A stretch of 64,000 bases of DNA from an uncultured bacterium (GTDB taxonomy: Bacteria > Patescibacteriota > Patescibacteriia > Magasanikbacterales > GWA2-37-8), in NCBI GenBank assembly GCA_937903605.1, contig CALCZC010000025.1, positions 281,372-345,371 of the forward strand. Direction: 5' to 3'. This document shows, in pieces, positions 2,406 through 20,390 of this stretch. The stretch's first letter is position 1, and every line of letters starts with the position of its first letter. The position numbers and the translations under genes were made by a program. The notes under the pieces were generated by a model. That model was not told the DNA's origin and did not search any database. It saw nothing but the letters and a program-made list of their open reading frames with translations.

Positions 2406-3464
2406 TTATTTTTTTGTTGTAGTAATGGTAGATGTAGCAACAATTTCTTCTTCCATGGTTGTAGTAGCGTTTGGCACGGTCGGAATTTCTATTTTTGCTC
2501 CATCAACTTCTACAGCAATCGGAGCAAAAGGGGTCTTATCACAATAGAAATTATTTTCACCACAACCCAGTTGAAGCCATTCATAAATACGACTCGGATC
2601 CTCGTCTATGGCCATATAAACTTGATAAACATGGGGAAATTGTTTCAAGGTATTTTCTATTTGCGATAAGAATTGTGCACTACCACAAGAACTGTTAGCG
2701 TTTGGGATCAGAGTGCGCAGATCCTTAAGATTTACCAAGGCCACATTTTCCACCACTTTTACACTACGTAAAATTTTCGCTGTAGTGGTGTTAAAAAAAC
2801 TTTGAAAACCAGCTTCTACTTGAGCATCATTTGGACCGGCAAATAAAGTGCGCAAAGCTTGTTCTTCGTAAGATTGAGTGCCGGAAACTGAGATTTCTAC
2901 CGGATAAGACAATCGACAATCTAACATCTCCGGATTTAATTTTATATTATTAAAAAAAACTTTAAATTTATTTAATTTAAATTCTTTACCCGAATCTATT
3001 TTAAAACTATTGATAACCTCGTTTACACCGCGATGCAAAATAATAAATTCCTCCATTTGCGGAGAAGTATAAGGATTATCCAGTGTACGTACCAAGACAA
3101 AAACATGATTATTGGTATAGGCAAAAACTTGTTGATTCAAAATAAGTTCCTGATTGTTTTTATAAGTTTGCCAGGTTTCAAAAGGATAAACAACTAGACG
3201 AAAAATAGGATATTCCTGTCCTGGTAAGCCATTATAAACAAAAGATAAAACCTCAATATCGTTTTGCATTTCTTCTACCAAACTAAAATTACCAAGCCAA
3301 CCATCAGGAAATGAAAGTGAAAAACCATATTTATCCGAATAATAATTTTTTTGATTATATCCTTCCATCTTTTGTGGACCAGATTGTTTTTGTGTACAAC
3401 CAGAAAAAACAATGACGCACACAAACAACAGTGATACAAAAAAGACTTTTTTAAATCTTAACAT
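2406..3464 (-). CDS. lipoprotein of unknown function (352 aa)
   Basis: Lipoprotein signal peptide MLRFKKVFFVSLLFVCVIVFSGC with lipobox cysteine. The remainder has no confidently recognisable domain. Confidence 0.6.
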   Translation of the reverse strand: MLRFKKVFFVSLLFVCVIVFSGCTQKQSGPQKMEGYNQKNYYSDKYGFSLSFPDGWLGNFSLVEEMQNDIEVLSFVYNGLPGQEYPIFRLVVYPFETWQTYKNNQELILNQQVFAYTNNHVFVLVRTLDNPYTSPQMEEFIILHRGVNEVINSFKIDSGKEFKLNKFKVFFNNIKLNPEMLDCRLSYPVEISVSGTQSYEEQALRTLFAGPNDAQVEAGFQSFFNTTTAKILRSVKVVENVALVNLKDLRTLIPNANSSCGSAQFLSQIENTLKQFPHVYQVYMAIDEDPSRIYEWLQLGCGENNFYCDKTPFAPIAVEVDGAKIEIPTVPNATTTMEEEIVATSTITTTKK

Positions 3465-3532
3465 AGTTCGTATTTTAAAAATATTAAAAATTGGATATTA
3501 ATACTCTTATTTTAATCCAAAACAAATAAAAA

Positions 3533-3568
3533 GGCAATAAAAAAGGCGCAGCTATGGGAAGCTGCGCC
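3533..3568 (-). terminator. strong intrinsic terminator (GGCGCAGC-ttcccata-GCTGCGCC followed by TTTTTTATTG on the minus strand)
   Basis: Perfect 8-bp GC stem plus U-run, read on the minus strand. Confidence 0.75.
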
Positions 3569-4136
3569 AAGGTACGACACAAGGTACGAAACGGGACAAA
3601 AACAATTCGGATCCTTTGACAGGGATAAAGGCGAATACAACAGCCTCCGGTAAAAACCGCTTTAGTAGGACCTTTTTGGCCAGCGTGTTAGCCATCAGGA
3701 CCTCAAGACTGTTGTTTCCAAGAACTTGGATTGGAGAGGATAGCCAAGACCACATTACAACCTTACCTCTAACAAGCAAGAAAAAGCTACTTAACAGCGG
3801 CTTGCATCTTCGCACAAACTGTAAAATAGCTGGATACCTCTGCTTAAAAGCTACCGCTTCTGAAAAAACGGAGTAAGCTTTACCGATAAACTCGGCAGGT
3901 TTAGGCATCACTTACGATACGCTTGTTGCACTGCTATGACCTAGATGAAGGAAACAGTGCATGGGTTTTTTGATTGCAGCAGATAGAACTGCCAGGTCTT
4001 TGTTGGCGACCAAGTCCCTAGCACAGACAAAAGAGTTTAAGTTGTTTTTTTCTGTGCGAAAAAACACTCCATCTTTTTTCAGTAGTGACCGCTTACCTGT
4101 CTGTCAAAGAACATGTTTTCTGTCCAAAAAAACATA
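3537..4136 (-). ncRNA. candidate ~600-nt structured non-coding RNA of unknown family (orphan transcription unit)
   Basis: Bounded upstream by a near-consensus promoter (TTGACT-N16-TATAAT, minus strand, -10 at 4143-4148). Bounded downstream by the strong terminator at 3533-3568. G+C is clearly higher than the surrounding genes and local hairpins are numerous. The only ORFs (119 aa minus, 86 aa plus) lack an RBS and would read through the terminator stem. Confidence 0.45.
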
Positions 4137-4142
4137 AACAAA

Positions 4143-4170
4143 ATTATAAACCTTTTTTTGTAAAAGTCAA
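4143..4170 (-). promoter_or_regulatory. near-consensus sigma70-type promoter (TTGACT-N16-TATAAT) driving the orphan RNA unit
   Basis: Read on the minus strand: gTTGACTtttacaaaaaaaggttTATAATt. Confidence 0.6.
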
Positions 4171-4179
4171 CCTGTGGAT

Positions 4180-4203
4180 AAAAAAACCCGGACTAAATCC
4201 GGG
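4180..4203 (-). terminator. intrinsic terminator of the response-regulator gene (CCCGGA-tttagt-CCGGG plus T7 on minus strand)
   Basis: Hairpin plus U-run lies directly downstream of the stop at 4212. Confidence 0.65.
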
Positions 4204-4211
4204 CTATGTAA

Positions 4212-4601
4212 CTAATCACTCAATTTTTTCTTAAAAATTTCTAATAACTTTTCCAAATTAAGCGGTTTCAGAAAAAGGGATTCCGAAAAAGTTTCTTTTA
4301 CTTCATCGTAAAGTGATGAGTGAATGCTCGCAGTCATAAACATTACTTGCGGACACTCTTCGCCGAGAGCTTCGGTGTCAGCCTCTATCACCCGAATCAC
4401 ATCTAGTCCGGAGATAAATGGCATATGGAGATCTGTCAAAATGATTTTTATCTCTTTTTGATTCTGTATGAATTTCCGCAATCCTTCTTGGCCGTTTTTG
4501 GCCGTGATTATTTCCAAATCAGTTCCGCGAAAAAATCTCACCATGGTAAAAAGTGAAAGTTCGTCATCGTCAATAATTAAAATCTTCTTTTTTCCATTCA
4601 T
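4212..4601 (-). CDS. stand-alone response-regulator receiver (CheY-like) domain protein, 129 aa
   Basis: MNGKKKILIIDDDELSLFTMVRFF…ILTDLHMPFISGLDV… shows the receiver acidic pocket, phospho-acceptor Asp and a later Lys. No output domain. GGAG RBS. Own promoter-like TTGATT-N17-TAAGAT and own terminator, so monocistronic. Confidence 0.8.
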   Translation of the reverse strand: MNGKKKILIIDDDELSLFTMVRFFRGTDLEIITAKNGQEGLRKFIQNQKEIKIILTDLHMPFISGLDVIRVIEADTEALGEECPQVMFMTASIHSSLYDEVKETFSESLFLKPLNLEKLLEIFKKKLSD

Positions 4602-4710
4602 TTTATTCTCCTTTTTTGAAAAAATATTAAAGAACTCAACGGATCATCTTAGCACAAAACCAAATAAAAATCAAGGATTAATCACCCTTGATTTTTATCT
4701 TGATAAAATT

Positions 4711-5748
4711 TTAGTCTTTACCATGCGCAATACTTTCTTTTATTCCGGCGGAAGTAATAGAAATAAAATCGGCCTTTCCTTTTATATCTTCTATATTTTC
4801 CGCGCCCACATATGTCATCCCCGAAGCCAAACCGCCCAAAATCCTCTTTATTATCGGCGCTACTGGGCCTTTGAATGGCACAACTGTCATTTCTCCTTCT
4901 ACATGCACCACTTCATCGGTTTTTTGCCCATCCATCTGCATTTTCTTTATTGTGGCGGCAAAACTAGCCATCCCACGATATTCTTTGAATTTATTTTTTC
5001 CTTTGATAATTATCTTTCCCGGAGTTTCTGCTACGCCGGCAAACATAGAACCTATCATCACCGTGTCAGCCCCCGCACCAATAGCTTTACTGACATCACC
5101 GGGTTGTTTTATTCCACCGTCGGCACAAATCGGCACTCGGCCTTGTGCGGCTTCATAAGCATCCATTATAGCGGTAATTTGTGGTACCCCTGCTCCGGTC
5201 ATTACTCTGGTTGTACACATTGATCCTGGCCCTATCCCAACTTTTATTGCATCCGCTCCTTTATGAATAAAATATTCAGCTGCATCTTTGGTGGCAATAT
5301 TTCCCGCCATTACATCAATTTGAGGAAAGTTCTTTTTAATATATTCCACGATTTTACCCATGCGCTTGCAATGACCGTGTGCAATATCCAAAACAACTAT
5401 ATTGACTCCGGCTTTGGCCAAAGCCATTACTCTTTCTTCAAAATCTTTGACTCCGACAGCTGCAGCAGCCAATAATTTTTGTTTTTTGATTTTTTCTATT
5501 TCTTTCGCTTGTTCTTTTATAGTTAGAAAACGATGAACAACTCCCAAGCCCCCCAAACGACCAATGGCTATAGCCATATCGCTTTCACAAACGGTGTCCA
5601 TATTGGCGGCCAAAATCGGCATATCCAATTCATAATTTTTGGTAACTCTGGTTTTGAAACTAACATCTTTGCGCGAAAAAACTTTGTTGTATTTGGGAAC
5701 AATCAAAACATCGTCAAAAGAATATCCTGAGCCGATAATACGAGCCAT
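4711..5748 (-). CDS. IMP dehydrogenase/GMP reductase family protein lacking the CBS subdomain (345 aa)
   Basis: [35 protein letters not shown]…, catalytic loop [11 protein letters not shown], and C-terminal [28 protein letters not shown]. The length and absence of CBS fit GuaC-like or CBS-less GuaB. Confidence 0.8.
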
Positions 5749-5792
5749 ACAAATAATTTTAGATTGAGGATTTAAAGATTGAAGATTTTTTG

Positions 5793-5864
5793 TAGCCCGT
5801 AGGGGAATCGAACCCCTCTTACTGCCTTGAGAAGGCGGCGTCCTAACCGATAGACGAACGGGCC
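5793..5864 (-). tRNA. tRNA-Glu (anticodon CUC), 72 nt, CCA not encoded
   Basis: Minus-strand sequence GGCCCGTTCGTCTATCGGTTAGGACGCCGCCTTCTCAAGGCAGTAAGAGGGGTTCGATTCCCCTACGGGCTA folds as a cloverleaf. The acceptor stem starts with a G1-U wobble. T-arm is AGGGG/CCCCT with a TTCGATT loop. The anticodon loop is TTCTCAA, with one C-A mismatch in the anticodon stem. Overall layout is close to bacterial tRNA-Glu. Own TTGACT-N17-TATATT promoter upstream. Confidence 0.8.
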
Positions 5865-5941
5865 AAAACCAACAAATAATATAATAAAAAAACCAAAAAA
5901 AGTCAATCCGCCAAAACGGCGGATTGTGTTAATCTTTTTAT

Positions 5942-7237
5942 TTATTTCTTCATCCAATATTCTTCTTGTCGCACTAATAACTCTCCTGCTTTTTCCGGTT
6001 CAGCCATAACTTCTTTGACTATTTTTTCCATCCTGGTACTTTGTGAACCTTTTATCAAGATAACATCACCCTTTTCCATTTTATCTTGCAAAAACTTACC
6101 GGCTGAAGCACTATCATCAAAAACCGCCACTTTATTTTCATCCATCCCTGCTTCTCTGGCCGCAGCAGCAGTAAATTTTTTACTAGCTTGTCCAACAGTT
6201 ATCAAATAATCAATTTCTTTTTCCGCCACTTTGAAACCTATTTCTCGATGAGCATTTTCAGTATCAGTACCAAGTTCCAACATATCTCCTAAAACTGCTA
6301 TTCTTTTACCTTTGTCTTGAGGGTGAATTTTTGTCAAAGCATTCAAAGCACTTCTAACTGCGTCGGGACTAGAGTTGTAAGTATCGTCAATGAGTAAAGT
6401 TTGTTTGATTCCTGGGATAATACGCATATGTCCGCTCAACGGTTTTATTTTTCGCAAAGCCAAAGCCCCGTCAACTAAATTTATTCCAAAAATATGTCCG
6501 ACTGTCAAACCAGCCAATGCTGCAGGAATAAATTGTTCAGCAATAAATCCGGGTAGAAATACCGGTACAATATTACCTCGAAAAGAAACTTTAAAATTAA
6601 GCCCTGTTGGCCAACCTGTTTGTTCATCGTCAATAACATTAATGTCTGTGGCTTGAAAATCAGCTCCGTCTTTGAAACCGTAAGTAAAAGTTTCGGCGTT
6701 AGTTTTAGCACTTTGCATCACCATTTCATTATCAAAATTTAATACTGCAAAACCGTCTTCTTTGAGATGAGAAACTATCAAACGTTTTTCTTGCGCGATT
6801 TTTTTCACGGTTTTGAAAAATTCAATATGTGTATTACCGATAAAAGTCAGTACCCCGACTTTGCATGGCGCTATATCAATAAGATATTCAATATCTCCTG
6901 GCTTATCCGCACCCATTTCTAACACCAAGATATCAGGATAATTTTTATCACGATTAAAACGCAACGCAAAAGCTTTGGCAAAAACCTTAAACCAACCCAA
7001 AATATCCTTGCCTGGAGTTTTTTCCACCCCAATAATAGTAAGAGGCATTCCAATTTCATTGTTGTAATTTTTTTTGTTGGAACGCACATTAAATTTACTG
7101 GCAAGCACAGAGGCGATAGCTTCTTTGGCCGAGGTTTTACCGATAGAACCAGTAATCCCAATGATGTCGGGTTTATATTTTTTTAGAATTTTCTTCGCGC
7201 AATGACGAAGCAACATCTGCAAAATAGTTTTTAACAT
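5942..7237 (-). CDS. murF: UDP-N-acetylmuramoyl-tripeptide--D-alanyl-D-alanine ligase
   Basis: GITGSIGKTSAKEAIASVL P-loop of Mur ligases. Length and motif order fit MurF. A hairpin terminator (AATCCGCC-gtttt-GGCGGATT) follows. Confidence 0.85.
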   Translation of the reverse strand: MLKTILQMLLRHCAKKILKKYKPDIIGITGSIGKTSAKEAIASVLASKFNVRSNKKNYNNEIGMPLTIIGVEKTPGKDILGWFKVFAKAFALRFNRDKNYPDILVLEMGADKPGDIEYLIDIAPCKVGVLTFIGNTHIEFFKTVKKIAQEKRLIVSHLKEDGFAVLNFDNEMVMQSAKTNAETFTYGFKDGADFQATDINVIDDEQTGWPTGLNFKVSFRGNIVPVFLPGFIAEQFIPAALAGLTVGHIFGINLVDGALALRKIKPLSGHMRIIPGIKQTLLIDDTYNSSPDAVRSALNALTKIHPQDKGKRIAVLGDMLELGTDTENAHREIGFKVAEKEIDYLITVGQASKKFTAAAAREAGMDENKVAVFDDSASAGKFLQDKMEKGDVILIKGSQSTRMEKIVKEVMAEPEKAGELLVRQEEYWMKK

Positions 7238-19820: not shown

Positions 19821-19891
19821 GGAATCACCTCCTAGAAAATAAAAGTAAAAAGGACCTTGAACATTTAACCATTTTTTATTTTTATTGTCAA

Positions 19892-19927
19892 TAATTAAAA
19901 AACCCCCGTTATAATAACGGGGGTTTT
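19892..19927 (-). terminator. intrinsic terminator of hup (AACCCCCGTTATtATAACGGGGGTT plus T-run on minus strand)
   Basis: Perfect 11-bp GC-rich stem. Confidence 0.7.
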
Positions 19928-19942
19928 TGCTATTTTTGAAAA

Positions 19943-20224
19943 TTATAGTACTGCGTCTTTAGCAGCTTTGGCAACACGGAATTTTACCACAGTTTTTGCC
20001 GGAATTTTGATAGTTTCACCGGTGGCTGGGTTACGACCCATACGAGCGGCTCTTTTGATTTTGATCAATTTTCCAAAACCAGGAATAACGAATTCATTTC
20101 CTTTTTTAACTTCTTTGTAAGCAACGTTTGTCATTGCGTCCAAAAAATTAGCAACTTCTTTCTTGCTCAAGTTGGTAGCTTCGGAAAGCACTCCCAACAA
20201 TTGAGACTTAGTCATTTTTGCCAT
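19943..20224 (-). CDS. hup: DNA-binding protein HU
   Basis: MAKMTKSQLLGVLSEATNLSKKEVANFLDAMTNVAYKEVKKGNEFVIPGFGKLIKIKRAARMGRNPATGETIKIP…, 93 aa with the HU/IHF arm motif. Confidence 0.9.
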   Translation of the reverse strand: MAKMTKSQLLGVLSEATNLSKKEVANFLDAMTNVAYKEVKKGNEFVIPGFGKLIKIKRAARMGRNPATGETIKIPAKTVVKFRVAKAAKDAVL

Positions 20225-20390
20225 AGTGGTAAAAATTAAATTAATTAATAAATAAATTAATTTTCGGGCGGAAATTATACTTTCCTTACCCGACCTTTAT
20301 TATACACCAATAAAATCAATAGCAACAGCCCCCCACCTGTGGAAAACCCCTTTATTTTTAAGATTATTTCTATAAACTAACGCTAAAACC

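Follow-up and report, generated by a model that had tools for sequence, protein, structure and literature searches.

The 64-kb stretch of DNA analysed here (the window; contig CALCZC010000025.1 of an uncultured member of the Magasanikbacterales) carries, close to its start, genes in the order PBP2, MurF, tRNA-Glu, IMPDH-like, receiver (REC), GerMN lipoprotein, UppP and a CBS-domain gene. The REC and GerMN genes are separated by a gap of 748 nt (3465-4211), the largest non-coding gap of the window, and it is a transcription unit within this gap that we describe. Position numbers are those of the window, the unit is described on the minus strand, and L-numbers denote related loci. The unit is probably an independent gene for a structured non-coding RNA (ncRNA) of ~600 nt. 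The RNA would represent a new family whose range, as seen here, is a narrow clade within Candidatus Magasanikbacteria (Patescibacteria, in the Candidate Phyla Radiation, CPR), the group to which the closest named relatives of the GerMN protein belong. The initial annotation had proposed an unclassified large structured ncRNA at this place, and conservation, covariation, folding statistics and the absent coding signal all support that proposal.

On its upstream side the unit is bounded by the REC gene (4212-4601, minus strand), which closes with its own intrinsic terminator (4205..4185), a 9-bp stem and T-run kept in the REC-containing relatives. Just beyond it lies the RNA promoter, a sigma-70-type TTGACT-N16-TATAAT at 4170..4143 that scores 11/12 and is the top promoter-like site within 2500-6000; it stands where it had first been annotated, directly after the REC terminator. 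Transcription is predicted to start at an A 8 nt downstream of the -10 element, and the predicted primary transcript of ~597 nt (3539..4135) ends in the T-tract of a second intrinsic terminator (3539..3568). This terminator reads GGCGCAGCT-TCCCAT-AGCTGCGCC, with seven G-C pairs among the nine of its stem (3568..3545), a 6-nt loop and T6 at 3544..3539, and it ranks strongest among the nine detected in the 3.5 kb scanned. The earlier description of a GC stem followed by six Ts was essentially right, except that the stem has 9 bp and not 8 and the element ends at 3539 and not at 3533. A terminator hairpin closes the unit of every relative, with a hairpin sequence that differs between relatives. 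Downstream, a promoter for the GerMN-uppP genes (TTGCCT-N17-TAAAAT, 3509..3537, minus strand, 9/12) lies outside the RNA and marks its other boundary. The G+C content of the unit is 0.42-0.44, compared with 0.31-0.39 in the immediate flanks and 0.355 in the window; the marked enrichment reported at the outset is real but not unique, and is a weaker argument on its own than had been claimed, because the nearby IMPDH-like gene reaches 0.46-0.47.

We reached the relatives through the GerMN protein as anchor, so the true distribution of the RNA may be wider than the one given here. The same slot with the same promoter block was found in at least eight lineages (the window, L013/L073/L075/L078, L014, L015, L016/L071/L072, L066, L067 and L068), and L069 and L070 carry 3′ fragments of the unit. 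In the shared arrangement, a conserved promoter block is followed by 600-700 nt that lack a conserved open reading frame (ORF), and then by a terminator and the GerMN gene. Wherever the RNA is present it lies directly upstream of GerMN and in the same direction; the gene upstream of the RNA varies (REC in most lineages, MurF in L067, IF-2 in L068). The RNAs fall into sequence type A (window, L013, L014, L067, L069 and L070), type B (L015, L016 and L066) and type D (L068), and the window holds a single copy. A profile search with the GerMN alignment returned no new proteins. In the GerMN loci of more distant Patescibacteria (L018-L061), neither the type A and type B nhmmer profiles nor the promoter pattern had a match.

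We then asked if the unit could encode a protein. Its longest ORF (119 aa, 3552-3911, minus strand) starts with GTG, has no ribosome-binding site and runs through the terminator stem, features that bear out the earlier view that no ORF here is credible. That the ORF exists, and that L013 has one of the same length, is what speaks for a coding gene, or for a pseudogene in decay, in this or another frame. The ORF is lost in L014 (93% identical) and absent in all other types, and in L067 no ORF of either strand exceeds 48 aa. Substitutions within the 119-aa frame show no bias over the three codon positions (11/13/11 against L013 and 9/6/5 against L014), and the frame contains three 1-nt indels. 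Pfam gave no match for it, and a search of 1.84 billion representative proteins gave 0 homologs; none of 12 same-species contigs, where the gap is nearly identical, has a called gene in it; and a spurious ORF called in L072 matched only itself among 5.8 billion sequences. A conserved ORF, which the initial annotation had named as evidence that would refute its proposal, was not found, and we rejected a protein-coding gene, as the ORF is unconserved in position and frame, is without homologs and has evenly spread substitutions. Decay of a pseudogene would also be inconsistent with conservation above that of the neighbours and with compensatory pair changes, both described below. A coding origin, past or present, is extremely improbable.

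The predicted transcript folds with a minimum free energy of -197.9 kcal/mol, compared with -158.4 ± 7.1 kcal/mol for dinucleotide shuffles (z = -5.6), and none of 100 shuffles was as good. The RNAs of six relatives fold at z = -2.9 to -7.7; for three coding stretches of 600 nt, taken from the window as controls, z was +0.1, -0.2 and +1.6. In the predicted structure, helices P1, P2 and P3 form an interrupted closing stack of ~30 bp that joins the 5′ end to the segment just before the 3′ tail. P1 pairs GGACAGAAA (4117..4125) with UUUUUGUCC (3594..3602) at a probability of 0.78. Single-sequence ensembles predicted this 5′-3′ closing helix in all eight RNAs, with pair probabilities of 0.78-0.99 and spans of 520-600 nt, and its sequence differs by relative (GGACAGAAA, AAGGGAGAU, AAGGAGGGGAUU, AAGGAAGAAGUU, AGGAAGGGACU and GAGGGGG, each with its complement). 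P2 (helix 2) pairs GUUCUUUGACAG (4101..4112) with CUGUCAAAGGAU (3611..3622) at a probability of 0.97 and with 98% of cells paired; its element GUUCUUU is retained in types A and B. P3 (helix 3) pairs GGUAAGCGGUC (4087..4097) with CGCCUUUAUC (3624..3633), with 100% of cells paired and one compensatory change, G-C to A-U, in L067. Comparing the 5′ and 3′ ends by RNAduplex against shuffles was weakly discriminating (z -0.6 to -4.3), and pair probabilities were used instead. In type B, P1 reads AAGGAGG/CCUCCUU; mimicry of a Shine-Dalgarno/anti-Shine-Dalgarno pair was considered and treated as coincidence, the sequence not being conserved in type A.

Inside the closing stack, hairpin H6 (4021..4057, GCACAGA...UCUGUGC; helix 5 of the type A alignment) reads GCACGAG...CUCGUGC in L067 in a by-eye register, while the scored alignment gives L067 five of seven pairs. 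The adjoining long-range helix H7 joins UAGGGACUUGGUCG (4007..4020) to AAUCCAAGUUCUUG (3719..3732) at a probability of 0.85 and encloses a central domain of ~300 nt. Within H7, UAGGGACUUGG (4010-4020) pairs with CCAAGUUCUUG (3719-3729), 290 nt apart, and in L067 the corresponding strands are UGGGAAUUAGG and CCUGAUUCUCG, which keep 11/11 pairs with three double compensatory changes. The central domain includes the long hairpin H17 (3785..3831, helix 17), whose conserved 10-nt loop GAAGAUGCAA is closed by GC/GC and in which 7 of the 17 pairs are changed on both sides. A 3′ domain, H19 (3633..3718), is closed by GAAACAACAGUCUU/GAGGCUGUUGUAUUC and holds two inner hairpins (helices 19-22). A single-stranded tail (3568..3588) between the 3′ strand of P1 and the terminator carries the direct repeat CGUACCUUG twice (3580-3588 and 3568-3576), and this repeat is retained in L013, L014 and L070. 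The RNA would thus fold into several domains, with the P1-P2-P3 stack tying its ends together and H7 enclosing the central domain.

Two variations on this layout were seen in the other types. B-type tails have, instead of the repeat, a second GUUCUUU-like element that is a potential competitor of the 5′ strand of P2. The type D RNA of L068 has an internal terminator-like hairpin (GGAGGC...GCCUC and a U-run, ~2700-2800 of L068) upstream of the 3′ strands of P2 and P1, and three copies of the tandem repeat ACGTATTTAAAT stand between the RNA and GerMN in that locus.

The RNA is better conserved than the genes around it. Nucleotide identity to L014 is 92.9% for the RNA and 78.7-84.0% for the REC, GerMN, IMPDH-like, UppP and MurF genes, and identity to L013 is 90.5% for the RNA compared with 84-87% for the flanking genes; that the RNA outconserves its flanks implies that selection acts on it. 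We then analysed covariation in the homologous intergenic regions, as had been suggested when the unit was first annotated, using RNAalifold consensus structures for type B (alignment A4: L015, L016 and L066) and type A (alignment A5: window, L013, L075, L014 and L067). In type B, 45 of 210 pairs were changed on both sides, compared with 20.8 ± 3.3 in column shuffles (0/500 reached 45) and 3-9 when the partners were slid by 1-3 columns. In type A, 35 of 185 pairs were changed on both sides, compared with 13.2 ± 2.5 in shuffles (0/500 reached 35) and 4-10 with slid partners. Paired cells amounted to 94.2% in type B and 93.0% in type A, fractions that are inflated because the structures were derived from the very sequences counted.

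Several points weigh against reading these loci as one structured RNA family. The consensus structures and the pair counts share the same 3-5 sequences, for which the slid controls are the fairer comparison yet only a partial remedy, and P2 of type B has a low single-sequence pair probability. The transcript and both of its ends are predictions. No alignment is possible between the interiors of types A, B and D: the nhmmer profiles of A and B do not match each other's members and neither finds L068. A covariance model (R1) of H17, the best-conserved hairpin of type A, recovers only the full A-type members and not B, D or L069, so that the motif GC-GAMRRKGCAA-GCC is not established as homologous between types. 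Finally, the close relatives L017 (a 204-nt gap) and L062 (tRNAs and rpmG) are without the RNA in this slot, which means that it is dispensable or located elsewhere in those genomes. We infer, rather than demonstrate, that types A, B and D belong to one family, because they share the slot, the promoter block of ~40 nt, the length and the closing stack, and because A and B also share an H7-like helix at an equivalent place; in these two types the closing stack carries a GUUCUUU/AAAGRAY element. In L062, tRNA-Tyr, two tRNA-Thr, rpmG (L33), tRNA-Trp and a 118-aa ORF for which no Pfam annotation is recorded (283-1027 of that locus) replace REC and the RNA, which indicates a local rearrangement.

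The constant position in front of GerMN raises the question whether the unit acts in cis on the GerMN-uppP operon, as a giant leader or attenuator with its terminator as a regulated read-through point. The RNA precedes GerMN in the same direction whatever lies beyond it, be it REC, MurF or IF-2, and the GerMN start follows the RNA terminator by only 75-110 nt in the window and the relatives. This short interval, however, contains a conserved TTGCYT-N17-TAAAAT promoter that is also present in L062, where there is no RNA; since GerMN has its own promoter and keeps it where the RNA is absent, the RNA is a separate transcription unit and not a GerMN leader. The GerMN genes of L017 and L062 manage without the RNA, and the RNA is more conserved than GerMN, its supposed target. 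The terminator is strong (7/9 G-C pairs and T6) and we found no alternative anti-terminator pairing; a length of 600-700 nt with a stack joining the ends suggests a self-contained fold more than an expression platform. We consider a leader function improbable. As an independent ncRNA, the molecule would instead act in trans, in its folded form, from a gene delimited by its near-consensus sigma-70 promoter and its intrinsic terminator.

We next compared the unit with known RNA families. With Rfam 15 at gathering thresholds, only two tRNAs were found in the window. At E ≤ 10, the unit and two divergent relatives (window 3400-4300, L015 3280-3950, L067 2260-2960) gave only scattered, terminator-driven chance matches, with no match in any of the three to RNase P RNA (RF00010/RF00011), transfer-messenger RNA (tmRNA), signal recognition particle (SRP) RNA, 6S RNA, OLE, GOLLD, ROOL, HEARO, raiA or introns. 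A scan of the whole window at E ≤ 1 added nothing, and ARAGORN detected no tmRNA in the window, only the two tRNAs. The relaxed Rfam search that had been recommended has accordingly been run, and no family match explains the region. The literature that was searched held no account of a large ncRNA of CPR bacteria or Magasanikbacteria.

The cores of RNase P RNA, tmRNA, SRP RNA and the group II intron (domain V) had not been recognised when the unit was first annotated, and a mismatch scan confirmed their absence; there is also no reverse transcriptase or maturase ORF in the unit. The CR-I and CR-V strands of RNase P RNA are universally conserved and form P4, with the 3′ strand of P4 lying between the 3′ strands of P2 and P1. 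CR-I (GAGGAAAGUCC), CR-II and CR-V (ACAGAA..CGGCUUA) were all absent by mismatch scan: the best matches to RNase P motifs had 3-5 mismatches (4-5 for CR-I and CR-II) at positions that were inconsistent between homologs. The segment between the 3′ strands of P2 and P1 is CCGAAUUG in the window (8 nt, type A), is missing (0 nt) from L067, and takes the form of a variable inserted hairpin in type B and L070; because no conserved strand lies between them, the P4 pseudoknot topology is lacking. SRP RNA measures ~100-270 nt and 6S RNA ~180 nt.

These results bear on the suggestion, made in the initial annotation, that the unit could be a highly divergent housekeeping RNA (RNase P RNA, tmRNA, SRP or 6S RNA) or group II member overlooked by standard models. 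Diverged RNase P RNAs do occur in CPR genomes, where 10 of 35 escaped detection at the thresholds of Rfam and were found with lowered ones (PMC8172020). A 5′-3′ closing helix is a feature of RNase P RNA, tmRNA and 6S RNA, and no rnpB, ssrA, ffs or ssrS gene is detectable elsewhere in the window. Against this, lowering the threshold to E ≤ 10 produced no match to such RNAs in three divergent members, ARAGORN found no tmRNA, the RNase P motifs are poor and inconsistently placed, and no P4 strand stands between the 3′ strands of P2 and P1. At 600-700 nt the RNA is far longer than such RNAs, and it is missing from the syntenic slot of L017 and L062. Its interior is also wholly different in lineages that share 82-86% identity in MurF and the IMPDH-like protein, a pattern foreign to essential housekeeping RNAs. 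The suggestion is unsupported, and an overlooked housekeeping RNA is very improbable.

Patchy presence among close relatives and discrete sequence types would fit an RNA that belongs to a mobile or defence element. Examples are remnants of group II introns, retron msr-msd RNAs, the omega RNAs of IscB/TnpB and prophage RNAs like ROOL or GOLLD; pairing of the 5′ and 3′ ends is found in retron ncRNAs as well. The neighbours, in contrast, are housekeeping genes for the cell wall and translation, with no reverse transcriptase, IscB, TnpB, integrase or phage gene nearby. No intron, HEARO, ROOL or GOLLD match was obtained with Rfam at E ≤ 10, and blastn ('distant' mode) found no match in 50,697 phage and 72,556 plasmid records. 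The position and the promoter of the RNA do not vary between lineages, and the window has a single copy. We regard an element of this kind as a most improbable source of the RNA.

The promoter block of ~40 nt is the only part that can be aligned across all sequence types. Two nucleotides upstream of the -35 hexamer it carries TTATCCACA (4173..4181, minus strand), which fits the DnaA-box consensus TTATNCACA of Escherichia coli and Bacillus subtilis. All full-length members carry the box: it is exact in the window, L013, L014, L015, L016, L067 and L068, and the sole variant, TTATGCACA in L066, is changed only at a degenerate (N) position of TTATNCACA. The 2-nt spacer between the box and the -35 hexamer varies across members (GG, GA, TC or CC). 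Three further exact copies of TTATCCACA occur in the window, all within genes. The promoter spacer itself contains an inverted repeat of CTTTT (4162-4166) and AAAAG (4152-4156, both minus strand), and direct reading of the sequences showed a palindrome ACTTTT-N3-4-AAAAGT in the promoter spacers of most members, whose transcribed parts are otherwise unalignable between types.

The palindrome is a putative operator, and DnaA binding at the promoter box is likewise putative. That transcription of the RNA is regulated, possibly through DnaA, is a reasonable inference from these sequence features, and both the DnaA box at the -35 element and the spacer palindrome would take part in such control. 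We rejected a replication origin at the RNA locus, given the single DnaA box and the monotonic GC skew. Two other sites with DnaA boxes were noted. In the intergenic region at ~20225-20390 (minus strand), the near DnaA box TTTTCCACAGG has the same flank as the box at the RNA promoter. After it come TTGCTA...TGTATAAT and a hairpin rich in G+C, and there are weak Rfam leader-like matches nearby at 19858-19972 (plus strand). A scan of viral contigs with the promoter pattern gave a single match, L079 (an IMG/VR contig), in which positions 4700-5450 hold dense DnaA boxes in both orientations; this region is origin-like and unrelated to the RNA.

The type of the RNA tracks the adjacent REC gene. REC proteins are 83-92% identical to the window REC (4212-4601, minus strand) beside A-type RNAs and 27-38% identical beside B-type RNAs (L015 2837-3214, L016 388-789 and L066 910-1341). 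L014 and L015 are equally distant from the window in two other proteins: amino acid identity to the window is 85 versus 86.5% for MurF and 85 versus 82% for the IMPDH-like protein, whereas L014 has an A-type RNA and a REC that is 83% identical and L015 a B-type RNA and a REC that is only 38% identical. The RNA and REC have either been replaced jointly by recombination or are co-evolving. The REC of L066 is without the acidic pocket and the phospho-acceptor Asp.

Three further observations concern the neighbouring genes. The GerMN lipoprotein (2406-3464, minus strand) has the lipobox SGC and an N-terminal region of ~160 aa without a Pfam match; its full-length relatives form only ~12 clusters among 5.8 billion proteins, and distant matches (~214 aa) cover only residues 166-314. 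The tRNA-Glu(CUC) gene (5792-5926, minus strand) has its own promoter, TTGACT-N17-TATATT (5906..5878). The MurF gene is closed by a bidirectional terminator hairpin (5904-5926), with which the -35 element of this promoter overlaps. A 251-aa ORF (4468-5223, plus strand) antisense to REC and the IMPDH-like gene is of low complexity and almost certainly spurious.

Few bacterial ncRNAs exceed ~500 nt and have an intricate conserved fold; those known are rRNAs, group II introns, OLE, GOLLD, ROOL and a small number of others. Those understood so far are ribozymes, guide RNAs or unusual RNA-only assemblies. As the genomes of Patescibacteria are sharply reduced, a 600-nt RNA gene that is better conserved than the neighbouring proteins implies a real cost-benefit. 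The value of the finding is limited by a distribution that, as seen so far, is narrow (~ten lineages of one Magasanikbacteria clade, with 3-5 distinct sequences per type). Two concrete leads to the function of the RNA are the conservation of the DnaA box and the way in which the RNA varies together with REC. A bolder proposal, speculative and in our judgement rather unlikely, is that the RNA founds a class of large ornate CPR RNAs with an activity of their own (as a ribozyme, an RNA-only assembly or a ribonucleoprotein, RNP), expressed in step with the replication cycle through DnaA and co-diversifying with REC as a type-specific signalling RNP.

RNase P RNA resembles the Magasanikbacteria RNA in its closing helix followed by stacked helices, its multi-domain fold and its strong promoter and terminator. 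The Magasanikbacteria RNA differs in having no CR-I, CR-II, CR-V or P4 pseudoknot, in being ~200-300 nt longer, in not being universal at the locus within its clade and in an interior that is unconserved between lineages. The processing stalks of rRNA precursors, which are RNase III substrates, are likewise long-range duplexes of ~30 bp with small internal loops that join the 5′ and 3′ flanks. By analogy, the closing stack may be an RNase III-type processing stalk; such cleavage is purely hypothetical, and the Rfam scans revealed no rRNA similarity in the Magasanikbacteria RNA.

ROOL and GOLLD are, like the RNA described here, large (~580-800 nt), ornate orphan RNAs from stand-alone transcription units. 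They usually occur together with prophages and tRNA genes, whereas the Magasanikbacteria RNA lies among housekeeping genes, has no relatives in the phage and plasmid collections searched and has no Rfam match. OLE, which also forms a membrane-associated RNP, belongs to anaerobic Firmicutes, unlike the patescibacterial RNA, which has no adjacent oapA-like gene and no Rfam match at E ≤ 10; the Magasanikbacteria RNA is further set apart from OLE by its 5′-3′ closing stack and its discrete, unalignable sequence types. OLE, ROOL and GOLLD assemble as RNA-only homo-oligomers (PMC12286853). These assemblies offer a precedent for the way in which an RNA of this kind might function. By analogy with these three, its closest precedents, the Magasanikbacteria RNA may serve as a protein scaffold or form an RNA-only assembly, a tentative proposal to which we give somewhat less than an even chance. 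OLE (RF01071) and the Magasanikbacteria RNA are alike in their length of ~600 nt, their multi-domain folds with many covarying helices, their strong sequence conservation among close relatives and their place as orphan genes of a bacterial chromosome.

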